The position numbers and the translations under genes are program-made. A stretch of DNA of 51,898 bases, counting the filler, from Dimargaris cristalligena (taxonomy: Eukaryota): NCBI GenBank assembly GCA_003614675.1. It is 3 parts of 3 records of this genome, joined end to end, with 100 filler letters (N's around TTAATTAATTAA, not from the genome) between each part and the next. Parts side by side here need not be neighbours in the genome. Positions count along the whole stretch, not along the records: positions 17,335 to 34,566 come from ML002814.1; 2 more parts are not named here. One strand, written 5' to 3'. Positions within the stretch are counted from its first letter, which is position 1. Each line of letters starts with the position of its first letter. Below the pieces are notes generated by a model. It made no database searches, was not told where the DNA came from, and saw only the letters and a program-made list of their open reading frames with translations. Of the stretch, positions 10,113 through 34,666 are shown one piece after another.

Positions 10113-12831
10113 ATATTGTCATATCGCCAAGCCAGCTGATAGAGTCACCCAACAGCCAACTGCGCCCTAACCGCCTTTTATTTAAAATAGTCTATATACC
10201 ACATACCCCACTTCATTTTTGTAGTCAAATAGCGAACCGTTCGGCCCACTATGGCCCTACCTAGTCTCCACCGGAAGCCAGCGCTGGTGGTGAGTATTGG
10301 ACCGTTTTGGGCGTCGGGCCGAGGAGTTTTTAAACTAGGACCGTCCAATTTTACCGACGAGTTAAAAAAGTGGTTGCACAATGGCCTTCGGCTCGGTCAC
10401 CCACTTTGTTCATTCTATATTTAACGACGAGTCTACTATTATACCAAACCGACGGAATGGTTTTACGGTAGACCCCTCCCTCTCCCTCGCCACTCTATTC
10501 TCGGCTAGCAGGAAACTGGCTTGTATTGTTACGAAATGGGCGTGTATTTTTAAAATTCATTGTATTGCGCAGGCCCCCCCCGGACTCAACCCCGCCTTAT
10601 CCTATATATATCAACTGGCACGTTCGCCATCCCAGTTTCAATTAACTCTATTACTGTTGCCATTTTTCTATTGAGAGCCCGGTTTTCGGCCTCCCCCCCC
10701 TCTTCCCCAAGTTACTTTACTCATAGCCCCATTTGATAGCGCCTCGTGCTAATATAATACTACGCCTGTTCACCCCACGCTTCTATAGTTTAACCAACTT
10801 TCATACACTCTAATTGCCCTTGGAAAAAACGTGAATTTACCTACTTCTTTCCCCTTCGGCTCTCCTCTACCCTTAATTTTGGGTACCCTGCTGCCTTTAC
10901 CACCCATCCAACAGCTACTAGTATTGGTTAAGCACTAATCAATTTAATTAAAACCACTATTTACGAGCTGAATGATACAGCGTATGCCGTTTACTGAGCC
11001 ACTACTTGGTTTATTTTTATCGTCCCGTTTTAGTCATTAACCGGTTATTTATATCGCCCCTCCCCTTTTGTTTACCACCGAAATCCCCTAATTTACAGGG
11101 TTACTATTGATACTGCTGTGGTCGTGTGACTCTTATGCAAAACGGTTAATGTGGTGCCTAGTACGACACTTAAATTGGATTTTGTAGTATATACGACTTG
11201 TTTGCTTTTGTTTTGCCCCTCATCGCCACACCCCCTCCCAACTCCAGCCGTCTGCCACAAAGCCATAATTATAATCACTCTCGTTTTGAACTATCCAGCT
11301 GGCCATTCGGTAAGTCCCTAGTTAATCTAGTGTATGCCACACTGTCCTATTTCCGTTTTGTTGGGCCATTAGGTTGTTATGGGTATACATAGCCGTGCCC
11401 CTGGGTACCACTGTGGTATTCGATCCCTGGTGTTTACCCTTTTGTTTAGTTACCCTGCAGTTAGCAAGTCCTTATAATCCCTACCTAGCACAGTATACTG
11501 CACTGTATCATATCCCTGTCAGTCCCTGAAGTGCCCTCCTCCCCTTTATGTTCTTCCCACTATCTTTAATATCATTTCGCCCATACCGGTTGACTTAACA
11601 CTCATGATACCGTATTACTGGTTTAAGCCGGCCTGTCCCAAAAATTAAGCGAAAGATAAAAGGGAAAATGCCCATTACTACTACAGCAAGGGGCCGCAGG
11701 GCACTGTGTAATGCTATGTACCACCACCGCCGACTAACCACTATCCATGTATCTTTGCTATGTATACTGCTTTGGTTTATTATCATTCCCTGGACTATTC
11801 TCGTATAGCTACAACTCACGTTAAAGGTCTAAATAACCCATACATAACAGATACAATAGGGGAAAATAATACAGGGTCACTGGAGGAGAACCCAGTCCCA
11901 TACCCTGAGCGCGCACTTTGCCTTGGCTTCTCTCTGCCTCACCCCTCTTCCCCTTTTCCCTTCGTCGCCTTCATTTGGGTCAAGTGGTGAATTGTGGTCG
12001 GACTGTTTTTTAAGCAACCCTCCCCACGGCGCGATATAAAAGGATTGCCCTATCCACCCCCTCCTTCTCGGTACATTGTCGCCTTTTACCTCGCTATTCT
12101 CAATCGTCCATCTTTCCCGTCTAATGCCCTAACAACGCCTACTCTCCACCCAACCCCCAAGACTTAATATTTCTTTCTACGCGCCACCCAGCCGTATTTA
12201 TTCCACATCCTTCGCGCTTCTCCCTATTTTCTTTTCTTTTCTATTCTTTGCGTCATCACCTTCTCGGATTTCAGCCTCGCTTCGCCCATCGCTTGGTCTT
12301 TTACGGGGGTTTATTATATACTTTCATAGGAGCAGTTCGTTACAGCCCACGTTGACCTAATTCTTGACCTCCCCGCCTTTCGTTTGTGGTCTGAACCGCC
12401 GGGTTGAGCCTATTCATTTAATTCCTCTCTAACGACACCCTACTGTTGCTACCAGTCTAATATATAGTCCAGTATTACCCCTCTCCTACCTTCTGGGTTA
12501 CTGCTTTGGTCCATTTGAACTCACCGGTCTTCTCATCTTCGCCTTCTCATTACGCTTATCACTCTCTGTTAGGCTGGGTTGATACTACACTCCCCATTCT
12601 ATTACGTCGATATACCCTTCTTTTCACTTTGTCGTCTATAAGAGATTGCTCTTTCTACCATATCCCTTTTAGACCATTGTCTTACTTAGCTTTCTCTTCG
12701 ACTGGCAATCACCCAGCGTGTTTTTCTCTTACCTCTCCGCCTCTACTGCATCCGGTATTGTTATTACTGGTGCTCCATTTCCCCCCCTCCCCTTCATAAC
12801 CTCACAAGTGCTTGAACTAGATATTTCCATC

Positions 12832-15800
12832 ATGACTAACACTGACTGGCTACCCATTACCGTACACGACCCTCACACTGGCTCCGAATGGAGCTACAGT
12901 CTACAATGTCTCGGTAGCTGCATAATCCGCTGCAATACCTGTACACGGCTCTTACTCCTAACCCCCCGATCATCCCGCAATATCTTCTGCACCGCCTGCA
13001 ACGAGCCCCTCGCCATTTCCCTCGAAGCGATGCTAATGACCCCCGGGGTGATTGTCAAGGCCTTCAATGTAGAAAAGCCCTTCGACATTGAACAGTTCCT
13101 GCGAGTGGAAAGCCGGGCCGGTAATTTGCGGCCATCTAGTGTGGTTCGGCTAGGCTACCTATTAGTCGAAAAGGTGGAACTCGATGACTTGACCACAGTG
13201 GACAACTGTGCCAAGTCCCGCCGGGTGAGCCCTAAATCCCTAGGCGGTGGTGGCTCTTCCTCCCCCTTGAGTGCGCGCAAGAGCTACAAGGTACTCTCCA
13301 ATATACTCAAGCGCAGCCAACCCGGTCAGGGTAAGAAGGAGCTGGCCCAGATGGGCTGGACGCAGGTTCTGGCTGTCCAAAACGGCTCCCTTCTTCGATT
13401 CTACGCAACCAAGCCCCAGCGGCAGGAAGAGGGCCACCTCCAACACGTTCTGCTCGAAACCCTCGACTTGACCACCGCGGACATTACCCATCTGCAATCC
13501 GGGCGGCCCAACGCTCACCAATCGACCCACGAGACCAGCTCCACTAGCGTGGGTGGACTAATGTACCATGCCCCCCGTCCCGCTCGACTACTATTGACGA
13601 CCCAGGACGCCCAGTACACCATTAATGTGGGTACCGACCTGCTCACCGGTTGGTGGCAAACTTGTCTGGAGAAGTCCGTCCAGGTTTCCCGGGAGCGCAC
13701 CGCGGCGATTCTCAAACTCCAGGCTACTTCGCCACCACGCTACGGTGCCAAGGGGGCCACACCCCTCAACCTCGCTATAGATTCGCCCATCCGCAAGGAT
13801 ATCCCAACCCCCATCATTGCCGCCCCCCAGATTGTGACCCCACCCAATTCCTCCACCGTGTCTGCGTCGTCCGAACCCCCCCTTCGGACCATCTCCACCG
13901 CGTTCCAGCGCGACATGACACCCGGCCAAGTTCGACCAGTGAATTTGAGCGACCCTATCCTGGGTGAGGGAGTCCGCGCGGCAGCCGATAAGCCTTACCT
14001 TGCGCCTCGTCTGTCGTCGTTGGAGGCCGCTTTCAGCGAAGGCCCCCCCCACCGGTCCCGGGGGGTCACTGGCTACCCCACCTCAGAACGGGACAATGGA
14101 GGTCTTCTTCCTTCCCCAACCTCCCCTTCTTCTTCCACTTCGTCTTCCTCCGCCTCCCCCTCCTCCGCAGTTTCATTCCCGAAGCGGGGACCCTCGTCAT
14201 GTGGGGTTGGATCGGGCCCCCTCGATTGGGCCCAATCCGAAGGTCAGAAGGATTCGGTGGCGGCGCCACCGTCGGTCTGCCCCGCCACCAAGGAGCCGTC
14301 GCCTACCCTCAGTTACACCACTACGGCCTGTAACAATAGTGTCTGTAGCGATGCCTCTTTAACTTTCTCCGTAGATACATCCGACCGGGAATCTATTTTA
14401 TCTCTCGACTTTGACGATAACGACGACAGCGACGAAGGCGCCAATACTAACCCCAAAATGAACTCCCCCACCTCCATCTCCGTTATGCAACCCACTTCTT
14501 TTGTGCGGGTACGGTCGTCCGGCTACACCGTGATTTCCAAAGACAATGCTCAACCGAAGCGGAAAACCAGTATCAAGGTGAACCCCAAACGCATGTCGCG
14601 CTATTTCGAAGATTCGCCTCTGGCCAATATCGACTTTTCCGACGCTTACGAAGTTGGGCGTGGGTTGGCCGCTGCCCTCGATAGCCGGATGTCCAGTGAT
14701 AATCCCCCGGTGCCCACTGAACTGTCCCCTACTTCATCCACCACGGCTTCAACCACCGCTTCTACCACAGTCCAAGCCCCCCCTCTCGCCGCCCACCGGC
14801 GGGTCGCCCCCGTCCCCCCGCCCAAGCCCCGCCGCTCCCTCATTCGGGCCGTGGCTAGTCAGGAGCAATTGCGGCGGTCGTACCATAGCGGCAGCACGAC
14901 TGCCCCCCCGCCGATGCCCCAGCCCACCTTGGCCGTGGTCCCCGTCTTCACCAGCACCGTCAGCCTGAAGGAACTCACCGGTAAGAAATCTACACCCAAT
15001 CCCACCGCCTCGGGTGCAACCCCCCACCCCGCTAGTTTTTCGGCATGGAAGTCTTCCATTCGCCGCCCCGAGAATACTACCATGACGACAGCGAACCCCG
15101 CCTCCTCCATCTGGACCATGCCTCCCCCGCGTCCTGCCCATCACGCGGTGCTAGGGCCCCGGAGCTACCCGTTCGTCCCCCAGACGAAAATGACCACGAC
15201 AATGGTAGCGGAAAGCCACAGTGACGATAGTGATGATAGTTTATCTGATGGTCTGGAATTCTTGCACCCCACCCCGTCCCTGCGCAGACTCGGATCCTCG
15301 CCTAATTTGACCGCGGTGCGGTCGATGGACCTGGCCACCTACAGCCAGATCTCCCAAGTCTCGCTAGCTAGTACTGGGTATTTGGAAGGAGGCCAGCAGC
15401 CGGCGTCGGCGTTGATGGCTTCCCCCGTGTCAACGACCTCCACGGCTGTCAACAGCCCGGTGCTGACCCCCTTGGCGCAATTGAGCCGACTCAATAAGAG
15501 TGCCCACTGCATTCTGAGTTCGTCCCACCTGTCCGATCTCTCCCGCCCGATGGCTTCGTTGGAAGCCCTCCCCCAGGCCCGTTCGGCTTTACCCGCCTTG
15601 GTGGGTAGCCTGGACACCAAATTCGCTCCGTCATCCTCGTTGTCCTTCAGCTCGCAATCCTCAACCGACACGGAGGAACACGACGACGACGACGAGTATG
15701 GGGTGGCTTACTCCAACGGCAAGGCCTATAATGTCCGCGCCCAGAAGCAGTTGCCCCCGACCCCCATGAACCTCAGCGCTAACAATCCCTTCCTGGCTCT

Positions 15801-15840
15801 CTTGAATAACCGGGCGACTACTCCGCTGGCCGGTCTCTAA
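12832..15840 (+). CDS. Uncharacterised 1002-aa protein: N-terminal CxxC-x15-CxxC zinc ribbon, PH-like domain, long S/T/P-rich disordered tail
   Basis: Single long ORF with GC-rich codon bias; first ATG at 12832 (the track start at 12718 is a GTG). PH-like pattern 'LGYLLVEK...WTQVLAVQNGSLLRFY...LETLDLTTADI...LLLTTQDAQYTINV...WWQTCLEKSV'. Poly-Pro motifs and a C-terminal NPF. Confidence 0.75.
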   Translation: MTNTDWLPITVHDPHTGSEWSYSLQCLGSCIIRCNTCTRLLLLTPRSSRNIFCTACNEPLAISLEAMLMTPGVIVKAFNVEKPFDIEQFLRVESRAGNLRPSSVVRLGYLLVEKVELDDLTTVDNCAKSRRVSPKSLGGGGSSSPLSARKSYKVLSNILKRSQPGQGKKELAQMGWTQVLAVQNGSLLRFYATKPQRQEEGHLQHVLLETLDLTTADITHLQSGRPNAHQSTHETSSTSVGGLMYHAPRPARLLLTTQDAQYTINVGTDLLTGWWQTCLEKSVQVSRERTAAILKLQATSPPRYGAKGATPLNLAIDSPIRKDIPTPIIAAPQIVTPPNSSTVSASSEPPLRTISTAFQRDMTPGQVRPVNLSDPILGEGVRAAADKPYLAPRLSSLEAAFSEGPPHRSRGVTGYPTSERDNGGLLPSPTSPSSSTSSSSASPSSAVSFPKRGPSSCGVGSGPLDWAQSEGQKDSVAAPPSVCPATKEPSPTLSYTTTACNNSVCSDASLTFSVDTSDRESILSLDFDDNDDSDEGANTNPKMNSPTSISVMQPTSFVRVRSSGYTVISKDNAQPKRKTSIKVNPKRMSRYFEDSPLANIDFSDAYEVGRGLAAALDSRMSSDNPPVPTELSPTSSTTASTTASTTVQAPPLAAHRRVAPVPPPKPRRSLIRAVASQEQLRRSYHSGSTTAPPPMPQPTLAVVPVFTSTVSLKELTGKKSTPNPTASGATPHPASFSAWKSSIRRPENTTMTTANPASSIWTMPPPRPAHHAVLGPRSYPFVPQTKMTTTMVAESHSDDSDDSLSDGLEFLHPTPSLRRLGSSPNLTAVRSMDLATYSQISQVSLASTGYLEGGQQPASALMASPVSTTSTAVNSPVLTPLAQLSRLNKSAHCILSSSHLSDLSRPMASLEALPQARSALPALVGSLDTKFAPSSSLSFSSQSSTDTEEHDDDDEYGVAYSNGKAYNVRAQKQLPPTPMNLSANNPFLALLNNRATTPLAGL

Positions 15841-17234: not shown

Positions 17235-17334
17235 NNNNNNNNNNNNNNNNNNNNNNNNNNNNNNNNNNNNNNNNNNNNTTAATTAATTAANNNNNNNNNN
17301 NNNNNNNNNNNNNNNNNNNNNNNNNNNNNNNNNN
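17235..17334. other. Artificial contig linker (N44-TTAATTAATTAA-N44)
   Basis: Exactly 100 nt with a six-frame-stop core, identical to the linker at 34567-34666. Confidence 0.97.
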
Positions 17335-20427: not shown

Positions 20428-22958
20428 TTAATCGCTATCGTCGTCGTCCTCCTCTTCGGCGTTCGACAACCACTCTATGAACGGCGCCACCTTCTTTTTG
20501 ATTTCGCTCGTTGCGGGAGTCTCAGCATTCCATTTCAGGAACACGTCTTCCTCGATCAAGTCCAAATCATAGTTGAGCTTGAAGACCTGGGCGGCTTTGG
20601 GCAACCACGCACCGCCACCCATAGCGGCCGTGCTGTGATATGTGGTGAGGAAGCGGTCCCAAGCATTGAGCAGTAAGCGCTGGTCGGACGCCGACTTGAG
20701 GTAGTTGCTGAAGAGGGGCTTGTAGTGAAGCAAGGTGAGCCGGATGTTCTCGGGAGTGGGCCCCGAACCCAAGGAAGCCGGTGTATCTAAGAGGGCAGGG
20801 ATCAACAGCTGGAAGATTTGCTGCTTGGCGATATCGTGGCGGAATTCAAATCGGGTGATGTCCTTGGCGATCTCAGTCAGGGATCGCTTGGCACCACCAG
20901 TGCTACTATCAACTGGGGTAGGGGGCAGCAGTTGGCGAAGCTCGTTGATGAGAAGCTCGTCCTGAGCCGCGCGCGAGGTGGTATTAGTTGCGGCGGCGGC
21001 GGCGGCATGGGCAGCCGGGTCCCGAAGGTTAGGCGGGGGTTGGGTGAATTTGGCCATTTCCTCGGCGTCCATGGCGATAATGCGGGGCCGGCGGGGATCG
21101 CTACCGTTGGTATTGCTCTTCTTGGGCTTATTAGCCTTCCTACTCGGCTTGGCCTTGGCTGCGTCCTCAGGAGCAGCCGGGGATTGGGCCTGCTCGGGCG
21201 ATTGGGTTGAACTGGCGGTCTCCACGGAGGCCAGAGCCAGTGATTGGCGGTTGGCAGACATGTCCATGAAGGAAGTAGGGGCGGCCAGCGGGGTCCGGGG
21301 CTCCAGGAGAATGGGCTCGCGGTTGCGGTTGCTGCTCATGCCCCCACTGTGGCTATAGCCGGACTGGTAAGGGGAAGGGGTGTAGTGCCCCTGGTTGTCG
21401 TATTGGCTCTGGTACTGCTGCTGGGGGTGGTGGTGCTGGGAATGGCCCATGTTGTCGTAGCTGGGGTATGGGTGCTGGGGGGCGGGTCTACGTTGTAGCT
21501 CCTCGTTCCCGTGGGCGTAGGTGCATTTATGGCCATAGGGGCAGAAATTATCGCGCATGAATTTCTCACAGATTCTAGTTTTGTATAACGGGTTGTCAGC
21601 GGGGTTGGGCCGGTGGGACTGTTGGGTAGGGTTGCCGCCGCCATAGGGACCCGAGCGACCGCTGTCCTCGTAGTACGGATTGGGGCTCTGGCTGTGATGG
21701 CCCTGGTCGTGCCCGTGGTTGGGGCGGGTTCGGAGCTCAGCTTCACCGTGGGCAAAGGTGCACTTATGGCCATAGGGGCAGGCACCTTCGGTCTGGAAGG
21801 TTTCGCAGAGGCGTGTCTTATACAGGGGGCTGTCGGCTGGGTTGGGACGAGCTCCGGTCTGGGGAGGCTGGCCCTCACCGATGGTCGGACTCTGGTTGGG
21901 GGATTGGTGGTTGATGCGCATGCTTTGCATACGGTAGGTGATGCCCTGAGCATCTCCGCCATCGACGGAACCTGGACCATAGGGCCGGCGCTGGTGCGGT
22001 GGCCGATAGGAACTAGGGCCACCGTCCTCGCCGGTAGGGTAGGAGCGGCCACCCGAGGGCCGCGGGGCGCGCGGTCCTTCAGAACCGTATTCACCGGAGT
22101 CAGCCCGGGGGTAGCGACGATTACCGGCATCCCCTTCCACCACGCGCTGATGCGGGGGGCGGTACGCACGGCGAGTATCATCACCCCGGTCTTCGTCGGG
22201 GCTGGAAGAGCCGGTGGGACGCACGGGCGCGGGGCGGGCGCGGGGGCTGGGCTGGGCGAAGCGGGCGCGATTCTGCTCGATATAGTCGTGGGCGTCGGTC
22301 AGCACGGTCTGCATATTCGCATACATGGCCTTGTCAGTGGCATTTTCCAGGGGCAACCACGAGTGAATCATACCGGCACCCATACGGAAGGTGCGGTTGG
22401 GGTCCACCAGACGGGCTAGGTAGTAAGTAACATTCTTGGCCTGGGTACCCGACAGGTATTTAATAGAAGCGGAGAAATCGGGGTCAACCTGGAGATCTTG
22501 GATAGTCAGACCGGCCACATCGAGGGTCACGCGGATAGCGCACCTAGACGAGAGGTTCAACAGGGGCGAGAATATAAATATAAATGTATGGGTGTGAGTA
22601 TGGATATAGGTATACGGAGACTGGGATAATAACGGGGATTGAATCAATGGATTCGATGGAAAAGGGGCGGGTTGCTTTTTTAGAACCGGGCACTCAGGGG
22701 TCAATAGGGTTCTCCGAGGGGACACCGACCCAGGCGGGGTGGCGATGGGCCTTCCCACTCACCGATCACGAGTCGGACAGGTTGTTTTTATAATAGGTAG
22801 TGGGAGACTTACTGTTGCACTTCTTCTTGGCCAACGACTTTGCCCTTGGGGGGAGTCCAATGACGACGGTGGTTAAAAGTGTCGTTAATTAACAAAAACT
22901 CGGGTTGGTTTTTTTCAAGGCGAAAAATCAAGAGCCCGGCAGCGTTGATTGTCGACAT
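20428..22958 (-). CDS. 753-aa multidomain protein: degenerate NUDT2/Ap4A-hydrolase-like Nudix domain + 2 TTP-type CCCH zinc fingers + C-terminal eIF5-like W2 domain; exons 22958-22813 and 22543-20428
   Basis: Exon 1 reads MSTINAAGLLIFRLEKNQPEFLLINDTFNHRRHWTPPKGKVVGQEEVQ. A GTAAGT..CTAG intron (22812-22544) joins it in frame to QCAIRVTLDVAGL. Two YKTRxC-x8-C-x5-C-x3-H fingers follow. The C-terminus 'YDLDLIEEDVFLKW...APFIEWLSNAEEEDDDDSD' matches W2 AA-boxes. Confidence 0.9.
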
Positions 22959-24247: not shown

Positions 24248-25082
24248 TCATAGCCAGGGCTCGGCAGTGCAGTCGTCAACCAGCTCATTGAGAATTCCGA
24301 ACAAGGGTGAATAGCGGCGCTGTCGGAGCTCTTGCCATGACGCCCAGATCCACCCGTCACTCTTATCAGGCTCCATTGTCTATTTCATTGGAAATAATAA
24401 TAATATATATCACATAATAAAGTCCCAGCGGGTGATTTGATTTGGGCGGGGATTAGTTCACAAGGAGAGTAGTAACATGCGGGGGGTTATAGAAGGGAAG
24501 GCTAGGGCCTTCAATATTCGCGATTCCAATCGTATATTAAATAATTACAAGTGAATTACTCACCACTGGCTGTGGATCCTCGTCTACACATTCCGCGGAA
24601 AAAAACAGGCTGATCCAGTGCTTCTGCGCTTCGGGAAATATTATCGTCTTTGGGCAAATGAATCGAACAGCGGTGGCCTCCAGGCCCGTTTCCTCCCGGA
24701 TCTCCCCTGTGACGGATAAATAAAGAGGCAATGCATAGGAGGGATACGGGGGATTGGTTTAGCCATGGTCGGCTCTAAGCCTTAAGTAACTACCGGGTCA
24801 TTTATCATTAGCGCTGGGCCTCTTATGAAGTGGTATGTCATGTTGATGAAACATAGTAGGCAAGAAGTGGCGTGTGATATGCGCACGCGGCTAGGCCATG
24901 GGCCTTGGTGACTTACGTAAACAGCTATCGGTGAAGGTTTCTCCGAATTCGATCGAACCCCCAGGTAGTTCCCAGCACCCATTGCCCAGTCCTCCTTTTC
25001 GCTGTCCAATCAGAACCCGTTGGTCAGATCGGCGGTAGAGGACCACCACCACGGCAACCCTGGGTCGGTTAACTTGGGACAT
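24248..25082 (-). CDS. Nudix hydrolase, NUDT15/MTH2-like, 146 aa; exons 25082-24917, 24706-24564, 24379-24248
   Basis: Spliced product: RPRVAVVVV..VLIGQRKGGLGNGCWELPGGSIEFGETFTDSCLREIREETGL (intact Nudix box)...KHWISLFF...MEPDKSDGWIWASW...PLF. Both introns are GT-AG and keep frame. Confidence 0.88.
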
Positions 25083-25722: not shown

Positions 25723-28377
25723 ATGTCTACTACTCAAATGCGCGCCGTACTGGTTAGCCAACCTGGTAAGTTAAACGTAATCCCCCGATTTCATGTTAAT
25801 GCGCTTTGTAGAATGCCACAGTTGGTCTTCCGTTTATTTGGGGTAAACTTGCCCCGTTCCTCGATATGAATGTTAATAACCCCCTACTATACCATCTCTG
25901 ACTTCTATTCCCCCCTTTACAGGTGATAGTAGCCAACTTCAATTGGGCGAAGTGCCCCGTCCAGCTCCTAGTCCGACTGAGATTTTGGTGAAGGTACACA
26001 TTGGCATATAATATAGACGGAGCACACAAGTCGAGAGCTTCCCCTGAGACGGAGACCCCCATTTTTTATTGATTAATCCTGACATCTACCCTTATCTGAA
26101 TTTGGGCTATTATTATTTCGTTAGATCAAGGCCATTGGTGTCAATCGCATGGACATTGAACAGCGTGAGGGCCGCTATCCCGTACCCGCCGGGGTTAGTT
26201 CGATTTTAGGCGTCGAAATGGCCGGGGTGATTGAAGCCCTAGGCTCGAAGGGTAGGTTATTTGATAGACAATCGGAGTCTCAACTCCCTTGTGTAGGCTG
26301 GTTAGAACCCCAATGGGCACCGGTTCCTCTATTCCCAATCCGCCAACCCCCCTATCATTCGACACCCAGCGCTTGATATCTAATTAATCCTCGACAATGA
26401 CTCCTCTGATTGATTATCTACATATTCCCCGTTTCACTCTTACATCCACCAAGTCACTGGCTTTAAAATCAGCGACCGAGTCTTCGGCCTGTTATACGGA
26501 GGGGCCTACGCTGAGGTATGCTATTTTTGACAACAGCCCTTAAATAGAGATTAATATAGCATTGGATATTCAGCAGCATAGGTGATCGATAGACTGACAT
26601 TGAATTTAGTCTAAATTTTCGCCATTACATTTGTTAACCATTTTCGCTTAATAACTACTATATTTGTCCTGACGTTCTCACTCACCCTAGTACTGCGTCA
26701 TTGACCAAATGGCCACCATGCTGATCCCTCCCGCCATGTCATTCGAAACGGCTGCCGCTATTCCGGAGGTGAGTTTGACCATAATAGTATTGACCCTAAG
26801 GGTCCTCAACTAGTGTGTGTTTATTACGTGTTCCAATTTCTACAAACTTAGGCATATCCGTTCCTTCATTTAACTAACCGATGAAATTGTACTTGTCAAA
26901 CTCTTACTCTCCATAGAATTGTTACACTGCCTGGCAGTCCATTGAGTCAGTCGCCAATCTCCAGCGGGGTAAGTGGCCAGTTATACATGTCCCTTTAGCC
27001 TCACATTCCTGGTATTAGTCTGATAACTATTTACGCCGTCCCTTTAACCATTCGATAGAAACACACCTAACCATAGTGGACGAACACGTATGTTGCACCA
27101 TCATCCCATCCATTTATTTTTCGAATAGGCCATGATATCTTGATCCATGCCGGGGCCAGCGGCGTGAGCACTGTCGGTATTCAAATTGCCAAATTCATCG
27201 GAGCGTAAGTTATAATTCAACATGAGCCTCTCTGTCTCGGCGGTTCACCTGCCGTAGGCTGCCTAGTTAGTCCTTTCCCACTGATCACAACCATAACTGA
27301 AATCCTGGACATGCCCTACAACGCATGTGACTAACCGGTGGACTATTTTGCTGATTTGTCCTGCTTGAAACAGTAAGCGTATTTTTACTACCGCAGGAAG
27401 TGATAAGAAGCTCGAACACTGCCGAAAGCTTGGTGCTACACATACGATTAACTACAGAACCGAGGATTTTGCTGAAGTTGTAAGTGCATAGCCGCGCGTA
27501 TTTAGGTTCCCACTGCTTCCCAGTTAACGCTATTTTGCATGAGACATTATAGAACGAGGTTAGTAAAAACATTCTTGGAATTCTTTTGTACGGGGGATCC
27601 ATCTCACCTCATCACTTTGCTATTGCGTTTAATTTCACTACTATTAGATTCACCGTGAAACCGAAGGCCGCGGCGTGGACGTCATCATTGATTATATCGG
27701 GGCGGACTATTGGAATCGTAACATGGCAAGTCTCACCGTCGATGGCCATATGGTGATGCTAGCATTCCTATCCGGTAAGTTTAGTCTAAGGGCACATATT
27801 TATATGTGTATGGGAGTTTCACCGTCCTTGAATTGCGGCTGTTTTGTCGATTCAACACCTGTCCACACCTTTATACTGAAGAATTAACTAAACTGCGCTT
27901 GATTGATATGTTCATTAACCCGTTGTATTGTACAGGTGCCCAAGTCTCCGAAGCCAACATCGCACCCATTTTATTCAAGAGATTGAACGTAAGATATTTG
28001 TGTTTTTTTAGAATTGCGGAATATGGCTTGTTCAATGTTACATAAACCACACCCAAAAATGACTTTCCGGTTTGAGTCAATGGTCTAATTTTGTACCGAA
28101 CTGATAACTTTACCTTGCTAATTCCAACGCGGTAACATTAATGCAATCCATACTTGATGTTTCCCAGATACACGGATCCACCCTGCGGTCCAGAACACTG
28201 GCCTACCAGCGCCAGCTTAAGCAAGCCACGGAGAGTAACATTCTGCCCCGTGTGACTAACCAGCAGTTCGTGATCTGTATTGACCGGGTGTTCCCTTGGG
28301 AAGAGGTAGCTCAGGCCCATGAGTACATGGAGGCCAATCACAACCTCGGCAAAATCATCCTGAAGGTCGAGGACTAA
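25723..28377 (+). CDS. NADPH:quinone oxidoreductase, PIG3/zeta-crystallin-like (MDR family), 334 aa, 11 exons
   Basis: Exons 25723-25765, 25923-25993, 26125-26251, 26454-26515, 26691-26768, 26917-26968, 27129-27204, 27374-27479, 27648-27774, 27936-27988 and 28168-28377 splice in frame. Motifs MRAVLV, GVNRMDIEQREGRYP, ILGVEMAG, GGAYAEY, AAAIPE, LIHAGASGV, GSTLRSR, AHEYMEANHNLGKIIL. Confidence 0.92.
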
Positions 28378-34566: not shown

Positions 34567-34666
34567 NNNNNNNNNNNNNNNNNNNNNNNNNNNNNNNNNN
34601 NNNNNNNNNNTTAATTAATTAANNNNNNNNNNNNNNNNNNNNNNNNNNNNNNNNNNNNNNNNNNNN
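34567..34666. other. Artificial contig linker (N44-TTAATTAATTAA-N44)
   Basis: Identical 100-nt structure to 17235-17334. Confidence 0.97.

Follow-up and report, generated by a model that had tools for sequence, protein, structure and literature searches.

A NUDT2-type Nudix domain, very probably inactive, fused to CCCH zinc fingers and a W2 domain in early-branching fungi

NUDT2, the asymmetrical diadenosine tetraphosphate (Ap4A) hydrolase (human 3U53 and 4IJX; Caenorhabditis elegans 1KTG), is a free-standing Nudix enzyme. Several Nudix domains are inactive, among them TRPM2 NUDT9-H, TIRR, NrtR and DBC1, and TIRR and the mitoribosomal mL46 are inactive Nudix scaffolds. A further inactive member, CFIm25 (NUDT21), binds Ap4A or RNA in a mutually exclusive manner, according to passages of PMC7705103. 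The W2 proteins eIF5, eIF2B-epsilon and 5MP are described, in parts of PMC12439599 and PMC3201852, as binding the K-boxes of eIF2-beta through their AA-boxes. Here we analysed a 51,898-nucleotide stretch of Dimargaris cristalligena DNA (the window), which consists of separate contigs joined by N runs and a short AT spacer (17235–17334 and 34567–34666) and is not one continuous locus. A minus-strand gene at 22958–20428 encodes a spliced product of 753 amino acids that carries, from N to C terminus, a NUDT2/Ap4A hydrolase domain, two CCCH zinc fingers and a W2 domain. The sequence evidence indicates that the Nudix domain is very probably a dead enzyme, incapable of hydrolysis.

The Nudix domain occupies residues 1–142 (22266–22958, minus strand, with an intron inside this span), and homology and fold place its descent in the NUDT2, or asymmetrical Ap4A hydrolase, branch. 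By phmmer it matches the C. elegans Ap4A hydrolase 1KT9 (E = 3e-15) and human 3U53 (E = 1e-14); a profile search reaches 3U53 at E = 1.2e-28, exon 1 by itself matches Ap4A hydrolases at E = 1.4e-5, and the Pfam NUDIX score lies marginally above its cut-off (21.8 versus 21.1 bits). The AlphaFold2 model, built from a 43-row alignment, has a predicted local distance difference test score (pLDDT) of ~86–98 across the domain. When superposed on the human (E58A) and worm Ap4A hydrolases, the predicted domain gives Z-scores of 23.7 and 23.6 and root-mean-square deviations of 1.6 and 1.2 Å over 139 and 136 residues, respectively. As the initial annotation of this DNA had noted, the fold pattern and the HWTPPKG motif are kept. 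The top 8 VIA matches and the top 10 Foldseek matches are all Ap4A hydrolases, and ESM Atlas features score 0.94 against Ap4A hydrolase clusters (160/256 shared), which is a lead only. Among CFIm25, TRPM2 NUDT9-H, TIRR, NrtR and DBC1, only NrtR appears in the top structural or sequence matches, at low rank. A search for stand-alone short homologues returned 54 candidates, none at E ≤ 0.001, with a word index so insensitive that it missed even canonical NUDT2.

The domain shares with NUDT2 the fold, the HWTPPKG motif, the box spacing and the E45–R53 pair, together with a P1 site of His, Lys, Tyr and Lys and two stacking aromatics. In contrast to NUDT2, it lacks all three metal-binding glutamates, has a replaced SHEH loop, carries Asn at the position of human E130 and has a new acid, D26; moreover, it is not a free-standing protein but is joined to CCCH fingers and W2. 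CFIm25 offers an analogy for how it might work, as a Nudix fold whose eroded box serves ligand binding, but the Dimargaris domain differs from CFIm25-type pseudo-Nudix domains in belonging to the NUDT2 branch and in its partner domains.

The Nudix box follows directly on HWTPPKG (22842–22862, minus strand), which holds the P1-phosphate residues H33 and K38, and reads G39-x5-E45-x7-R53-V54-T55-L56-D57-V58-A59-G60-L61. The initial annotation had noted a canonically spaced box in which REUXEE has become RVTLDV after splicing; this reading is correct, and the spliced translation is identical, letter for letter, to a 753-residue protein recorded at NCBI as a Dimargaris cristalligena hypothetical protein (P0001). 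The range then assigned, 22505–22845, covers the box, but the domain spans 22958–22266 and the gene 22958–20428. In the second half of the box (22507–22543, minus strand), R53 is kept, and alignment to human NUDT2, with human residue numbers counted off the printed pairwise alignment, pairs V54 (22530–22528) with E58, the still acidic D57 (22521–22519) with E61 and V58 (22518–22516) with E62. In the SHEH loop, A105–G106 (22372–22377, minus strand) replaces Glu-His, and A105 aligns with the third metal ligand, E110. All three metal-ligand positions are therefore non-acidic in Dimargaris. In the close homologue DHNTPase, as set out in sections of PMC5526541, metals are held by two box glutamates and one distal glutamate that overlay those of Ap4A hydrolase and RppH, the last box glutamate bridges two metals, and the glutamate equivalent to position 57 is proposed as the general base. 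Human NUDT2 E58A released no phosphate from 5′-triphosphate RNA (ppp-RNA), in an experiment reported in part of PMC8616924. With no metal cluster, the domain should be unable to cleave a phosphoanhydride. These alignments support the loss of catalysis that had been predicted from the box, and they extend it to the third metal ligand.

The gene consists of two exons. Exon 1 (22813–22958, minus strand) encodes the initiator ATG, Nudix strands 1–2, HWTPPKG and the first half of the box, that is, residues 1–48 plus the first two bases of codon 49. A 269-nucleotide phase 2 intron (22544–22812, minus strand; GT–AG, GTAAGT…CTAG) interrupts codon 49, within the box, and exon 2 (20428–22543, minus strand) encodes the remaining Nudix domain, the linkers, the fingers, the W2 domain and the stop codon. 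Both valine codons, V54 and V58, are GTG, a single base from GAG, and one might therefore suspect a wrong splice, a sequencing error or a dying, lineage-specific domain. We regard such an artefact or decay as having a negligible chance of being correct. None of 23 in-frame alternative GT/GC–AG splices restores an RE..EE box, and a hidden exon or alternative splice rebuilding it was rejected; the intron lies at the identical codon and phase in two unrelated metagenome loci (L030 and L034), and in six loci the box runs uninterrupted through the family intron site. Sequencing error is excluded because three further Dimargaritales proteins that cover the box likewise lack both glutamates (a fifth, P0005, is gapped there), and still different residues (S, L, I, T, A and M) occupy the two positions in orthologues. 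The ratio of non-synonymous to synonymous substitution (dN/dS) is 0.067 for the Nudix domain; the fingers have 0.054, W2 has 0.083 and the linkers have 0.21–0.25. These values were obtained in another lineage, from five related loci without introns (L042, with a split frame, was excluded), and demonstrate purifying selection at the sequence level in that one lineage. RNA editing of GTG back to GAG was also rejected, as it would require a U-to-A change, and we know of no editing of that type. A separate locus, L028 (200–280), has a splice donor at the family position with exon 2 within ~20 bases and no AG acceptor; this is likely to be an assembly artefact, and L028 does not confirm the intron position.

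To place the Dimargaris residues in a family, a word search yielded 6 proteins, whose profile was used to retrieve the best 150 matches, for 152 proteins collected; Nudix matches occur in 56 of these and W2 matches in 47, while 36 combine Nudix, two fingers and W2. Residues were counted over the 58 proteins with a Nudix domain and a finger, each column over the rows having a residue there, in an alignment that contains a few near-duplicate or doubtfully aligned fragments (P0028, P0097 and P0161). No row has Glu or Asp at position 58, the last glutamate (0/46; I15, V10, L8, A4, T4, M3 and S2). Glu is present at position 54 in 25/44 rows and at position 105 in 20/56. Across the 40 rows that cover positions 54, 58 and 105, none has three glutamates, nine have two (mostly of Mucorales and Mortierella type), 17 have one and 14 have none. 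Among 52 metagenome loci, 11 have a Nudix match, and none of the ten that cover position 58 has Glu there. By contrast, the active control P0085, which has two Nudix domains and whose match to Ap4A hydrolases of solved structure reaches E = 7e-36, has Glu at all tested positions; P0085 and P0155 are tandem double NUDT2-type proteins with both boxes intact. Positions 54, 58 and 105 rank 72, 100 and 96 of 134 columns in conservation. The expectation that glutamate loss would be conserved among orthologues thus holds in full for the last glutamate and only in part for the first, which survives in many lineages and was lost later in separate ones; no aligned orthologue keeps REUXEE.

Ancestral states were counted on trees built without the box columns. 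The last glutamate changes state once and the first four to six times, and a single clade of all rows without the first glutamate is rejected (approximately unbiased test, p = 0.0003). These sequence reconstructions indicate that the last glutamate was lost once, early, and that the remaining metal ligands decayed later and repeatedly, the first at least four times, Dimargaritales included. One early loss followed by repeated decay is the pattern of a site freed from catalysis. A slow or non-canonical hydrolase, in which D57, E45 and D26 (and in some lineages E54 and E105) bind metal for weak decapping or pyrophosphatase activity on finger-held RNA, has some features in its favour: position 57 is acidic in 37/45 rows, E45 is kept in 38/43, and two of the three metal glutamates persist in the nine rows noted above. 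Some active Nudix enzymes, such as the guanosine diphosphate (GDP)-mannose hydrolase, have altered boxes. The proposed general base would be the position-57 residue (excerpt of PMC5526541). However, all three ligands are gone in Dimargaris, the metal-bridging last glutamate is absent family-wide, the independent losses of the first glutamate are expected once it is irrelevant, and position 57 is Lys in six loci and N, Q or A in 8/45 rows. We therefore consider residual hydrolysis highly improbable.

We next consider what the pocket of a dead domain might hold. In the human enzyme, the residues around the P1 phosphate and base are a His, Lys42, Tyr82, Lys89, Phe128 and Glu130, as listed in a portion of PMC4734340; the His is printed there as His32 and was taken, by alignment, as the one preceding Trp38. 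Their Dimargaris counterparts, besides H33 and K38, are Y78 (the base-stacking Tyr) and K85 (the P1 Lys) at 22435–22458, and, at 22315–22323, Y123 (aligned with human F128, the other stacking aromatic) and N125 (replacing E130, the base-amino contact), all on the minus strand. As had been anticipated, these residues, N125 aside, are constrained in orthologues and among the most conserved columns: H33 is kept in 37/41 rows, K38 in 39/41, Y78 in 45/50, K85 in 49/51 and Tyr or Phe at position 123 in 56/58. Over 40 near-complete rows with a median pairwise identity of 42%, the mean entropy of the five positions is 0.71 bits, whereas the median column has 1.93 (p = 0.0012, from random draws of five columns). 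A human E58A structure (4ICK and 4IJX are E58A entries) has diphosphate bound, judging by its PDB title. A further acid, D26 (22881–22883, minus strand), sits in the loop ahead of the P1 His; it is family-specific, being present in 35/39 rows, with Ala or Thr at this place in both active controls. In cap-binding pockets a base stacks between two aromatics next to an acid, and by analogy the two aromatics and D26 may resemble such pockets. On balance, and by analogy with related Nudix proteins, we favour slightly the view that the pocket binds a nucleoside 5′-polyphosphate without metal.

The dead domain could instead be a protein-docking or dimer module, engaging a partner, its own W2 region or a phosphorylated or acidic peptide, with the pocket kept for the fold or the partner. 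Position 58 is hydrophobic (I, V, L, A or M) in 40/46 rows, as though the metal site had been filled, and the base-facing residues are altered. Thirteen columns are at least 75% conserved in the family yet different from both active control domains, and they include the surface-type positions D26, K49, C50, E75, K77, K120 and Q127; G106, present in 53/56 rows, is also family-specific relative to the two control domains. What docking accounts for less well is that the ligand-facing residues K38, K85, Y78 and H33 rank 11, 9, 15 and 20 of 134 columns at the stated median identity, and that two exposed, tightly conserved lysines are better explained by an anionic ligand. We judge docking a plausible but clearly less probable alternative to polyphosphate binding. 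The single-chain model has a predicted template modelling score of 0.42, and low-confidence linkers separate its domains, with 327 of 753 residues at pLDDT below 50.

The two fingers, assigned by Pfam, are C295–H314 (21748–21807, minus strand), with a TIS11-like lead-in, and C374–H393 (21511–21570, minus strand), 59 residues further on. Like those of TIS11, tristetraprolin and Cth2, they are C-x8-C-x5-C-x3-H fingers with YKT-x-L lead-ins. In contrast to TIS11 proteins, the gap between them is 59 residues (25–120 across the family) instead of the 18 of TIS11d, the Dimargaris lead-in has Arg for Glu, and both fingers resemble finger 1; by the defining 18-residue spacing, this is not a TIS11 protein.

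The W2, or eIF5C HEAT, domain (residues 573–753; 20431–20973, minus strand) has both AA-boxes intact. It scores 59 bits against PF02020 (cut-off 30), its family profile matches eIF5 at E = 1.7e-16 and eIF2B-epsilon at 1.8e-12, and its model superposes on eIF2B-epsilon with a Z-score of 17. AA-box conservation is high (Y707, 46/51; W720, 49/50; W740, 45/46), and E714 and the acidic tail are also conserved. 5MP/BZW, the eIF5 C-terminal domain (CTD) and eIF2B-epsilon likewise end in a W2 domain with both AA-boxes; unlike them, the Dimargaris protein lacks the MA3/5MP HEAT domain, the eIF5 GTPase-activating protein domain and the left-handed beta-helix. PF25504, the MA3-type HEAT domain of 5MP, is present in 0 of 43 members scanned and is found in the genome's own 5MP. 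Regarding origin, the C-terminal half is 28% identical to eIF5, 23% to eIF2B-epsilon and 20% to 5MP, the structural list is led by eIF2B-epsilon, and the tree is dominated by long branches; the eIF5-CTD is not among the top 50 structural matches, which does not exclude it. A split eIF2B-epsilon gene was rejected as the source, as the genome's eIF2B-epsilon carries its own W2. Upstream of W2 lies a short conserved motif (residues ~532–545; 21055–21096, minus strand; K-x-W-M-x-V-V-x-L-S in the family, with the Trp absent in Dimargaritales), which we take to be loosely like the eIF5 linker motif used in GDP-dissociation inhibition.

The first W2 helices carry the family motif K-E-x-T-x-x-E, whose first Glu, at position 610, is Glu in 42/53 rows and Asp in Dimargaris (D610, 20862–20860, minus strand). 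In an alignment of ~20% identity, this position falls opposite a Glu in the first helix pair of human and own-genome eIF2B-epsilon, and we assume the human residue to be the counterpart of yeast E569. The yeast E569D substitution abolishes exchange activity, as stated in passages of PMC3877758 and PMC4046112. Guanine nucleotide exchange factor (GEF) activity therefore seems unlikely in the Dimargaris protein on the basis of its sequence. Separate genes for eIF5, eIF2B-epsilon and 5MP, and for an eIF2-beta with three K-boxes, are present in the genome, and this gene is thus a fourth W2 protein.

The fact that the Nudix domain fronts a CCCH–W2 protein points to translation control. From knowledge of the two families, it is likely that the fingers hold RNA and that W2 engages eIF2-beta. 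The first step of the scheme we propose is shown by the sequences: in the ancestor the last Nudix-box glutamate disappeared and the domain was fused to two CCCH fingers and W2, and the other metal glutamates went later, in Dimargaris and in several further lineages. The metal-free His/Lys/Tyr/Lys phosphate site and the two aromatics would still hold a nucleoside 5′-polyphosphate, the fingers would grip short U/A-rich RNA, and W2 would compete with eIF5, eIF2B-epsilon and 5MP for binding to the K-boxes of eIF2-beta. Initiation would thereby come under transcript-selective control, in its simplest form repression combined with 5′-end protection. The ligand is possibly an RNA 5′ end (a cap, ppp or dinucleoside polyphosphate (NpnN) cap), although this identification is tentative; a free ligand, Ap4A or adenosine triphosphate (ATP), is somewhat less likely, because RNA-binding fingers lie on the same chain. 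Taken together, an mRNA-bound eIF2 competitor whose dead Nudix domain holds a nucleoside polyphosphate, probably an RNA 5′ end, is a working model to which we give slightly less than an even chance, assessed apart from the free-ligand sensor below, with which it overlaps in mechanism. Improbable, by our estimate, is the bolder version of a single-chain receptor for Ap4A or NpnN caps acting on eIF2, in which the dead pocket reads either ligand, the fingers select transcripts and W2, which has the eIF2B-epsilon-type Glu in most lineages, is an mRNA-tethered exchange factor or a mimic of one.

Several observations weigh against polyphosphate binding and against the model built on it. The column counts had already been seen when the five pocket positions were taken from the available portion of PMC4734340, and pocket conservation may be partly structural, HWxPPKG being a core loop. 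The human E130 position is replaced in 58/58 rows (S32, N21, T3 and D2), and base-facing residues differ from those of active NUDT2, with Tyr at position 6 in 17/40 rows and the new D26; the ancestral ligand may no longer fit a pocket so remodelled in sequence, and the ligand need not be Ap4A. In six close metagenome loci, position 33 is Phe and position 57 is Lys. In Paraphysoderma (P0153/P0070) the pocket is eroded (Y78S, K85T and Y123S) and the box is lost too, while fingers and W2 remain. The Nudix domain carries a net charge of −2 in Dimargaris, where the family spans −10 to +9 with a median of +2.5, and a strongly basic RNA-binding surface was rejected, as none is evident from net charge. 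The finger spacing breaks the 18-residue TIS11 rule, so binding of AU-rich elements is not assured. Finally, records from Sorochytrium, Apophysomyces and Dinochytrium have fingers and W2 with no Nudix match, and may be short gene models or real losses. A Nudix-less Spizellomyces record is a short gene model, because its cluster mate P0157 has the domain; in Blastocladiomycota, where we place Paraphysoderma and Sorochytrium, further Nudix decay is possible.

An alternative, in line with the alarmone reader proposed in the initial annotation, is a free-nucleotide sensor, in which Ap4A or NpnN (or ATP or guanosine triphosphate) would switch RNA or eIF2 binding under stress. The ancestral substrate is Ap4A and it is the Ap4A-binding residues that are kept, CFIm25 provides a precedent for Ap4A binding that excludes RNA (PMC7705103, in part), and other enzymes in the genome degrade Ap4A, which would release the domain from housekeeping. 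Nevertheless, the universal replacement of the adenine-amino contact and the long, low-confidence linkers, which leave no evident allosteric route, make such a sensor rather unlikely. The degrading enzymes are an Ap4A phosphorylase and three HIT-domain loci, to which Ap4A turnover would have moved; yeasts likewise use such enzymes, according to parts of PMC7705103 and PMC10148737. No intact NUDT2 was seen in an exon-wise search of the 2,220-contig assembly, which is no proof of absence: the active-control query gives two matches, this gene first (E = 6e-4) and a weak one (E = 0.08).

The family is old, and its range takes in chytrids as well as Mucorales and Glomeromycota. A species name is attached to 23 of 30 clusters examined, which include chytrids (Cladochytrium, Phlyctochytrium, Spizellomyces, Gaertneriomyces and others), the Blastocladiomycota Paraphysoderma and Sorochytrium, and Basidiobolus, Coemansia, Kickxella, Smittium, Mucorales, Umbelopsis, Mortierella and Ambispora. 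The lineage was confirmed for five of the species, and the remaining placements in chytrids, Blastocladiomycota, Mucorales and Glomeromycota are our assumption. No Dikarya occur among the 23 named clusters and five named word-search matches, drawn from the best 150 profile matches, with no direct search of Dikarya. An ESM Atlas cluster of 79 eukaryotic members, Mucoromycota being commonest, is annotated zf-CCCH and W2 and named hypothetical protein. A tree of 28 complete rows, without two rows with irregular fingers and five long or duplicate rows, separates Kickxellales, Harpellales, Dimargaritales, Mucorales and chytrids, a grouping as expected from vertical descent of the sequences.

We found no description of a Nudix–CCCH–W2 protein in the literature searched, which lacked most subscription journals and supplements, and tables of genome papers could mention one; a ligand-type pseudo-Nudix domain in this architecture is apparently undescribed. 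The status of Ap4A and Np4N caps as eukaryotic signals depends on the existence of dedicated readers, and this family would be a form of the principal Ap4A hydrolase of eukaryotes that traps its substrate, maintained in chytrids, zoopagalean fungi, Mucorales and mycorrhizal fungi. It also brings the W2 proteins of the initiation machinery in fungi to four. If the protein were indeed an Ap4A or NpnN-cap receptor on eIF2, it would link stress to initiation in early-branching fungi by a route apparently missing from yeasts and moulds. Several records are named NUDT2 or bis(5′-nucleosyl)-tetraphosphatase and lack the catalytic glutamates, so their annotation calls for correction. The ligand question is amenable to simple binding assays, as the domain is a soluble unit of 145 residues.

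Other genes were noted in passing. Another Nudix gene is located 1.6 kb upstream of this one, also on the minus strand (window 24560–25082); its box seems to be split by an intron (donor 24916), the exon downstream of which has an intact box sequence, E-I-R-E-E-T-G-L, and the NUDT2 query does not match the gene. It is probably a chance neighbour. Elsewhere in the genome, a 582-residue open frame (L001, 1357–3102, plus strand) encodes a Nudix domain and, after it, a TatD DNase domain. On the plus strand of the window, 12673–15840 is a Ser/Pro-rich open frame of 1,054 residues with no Pfam match at E ≤ 1, and 25725–28377 holds a multi-exon gene, fragments of which we take to resemble a quinone oxidoreductase or medium-chain dehydrogenase.

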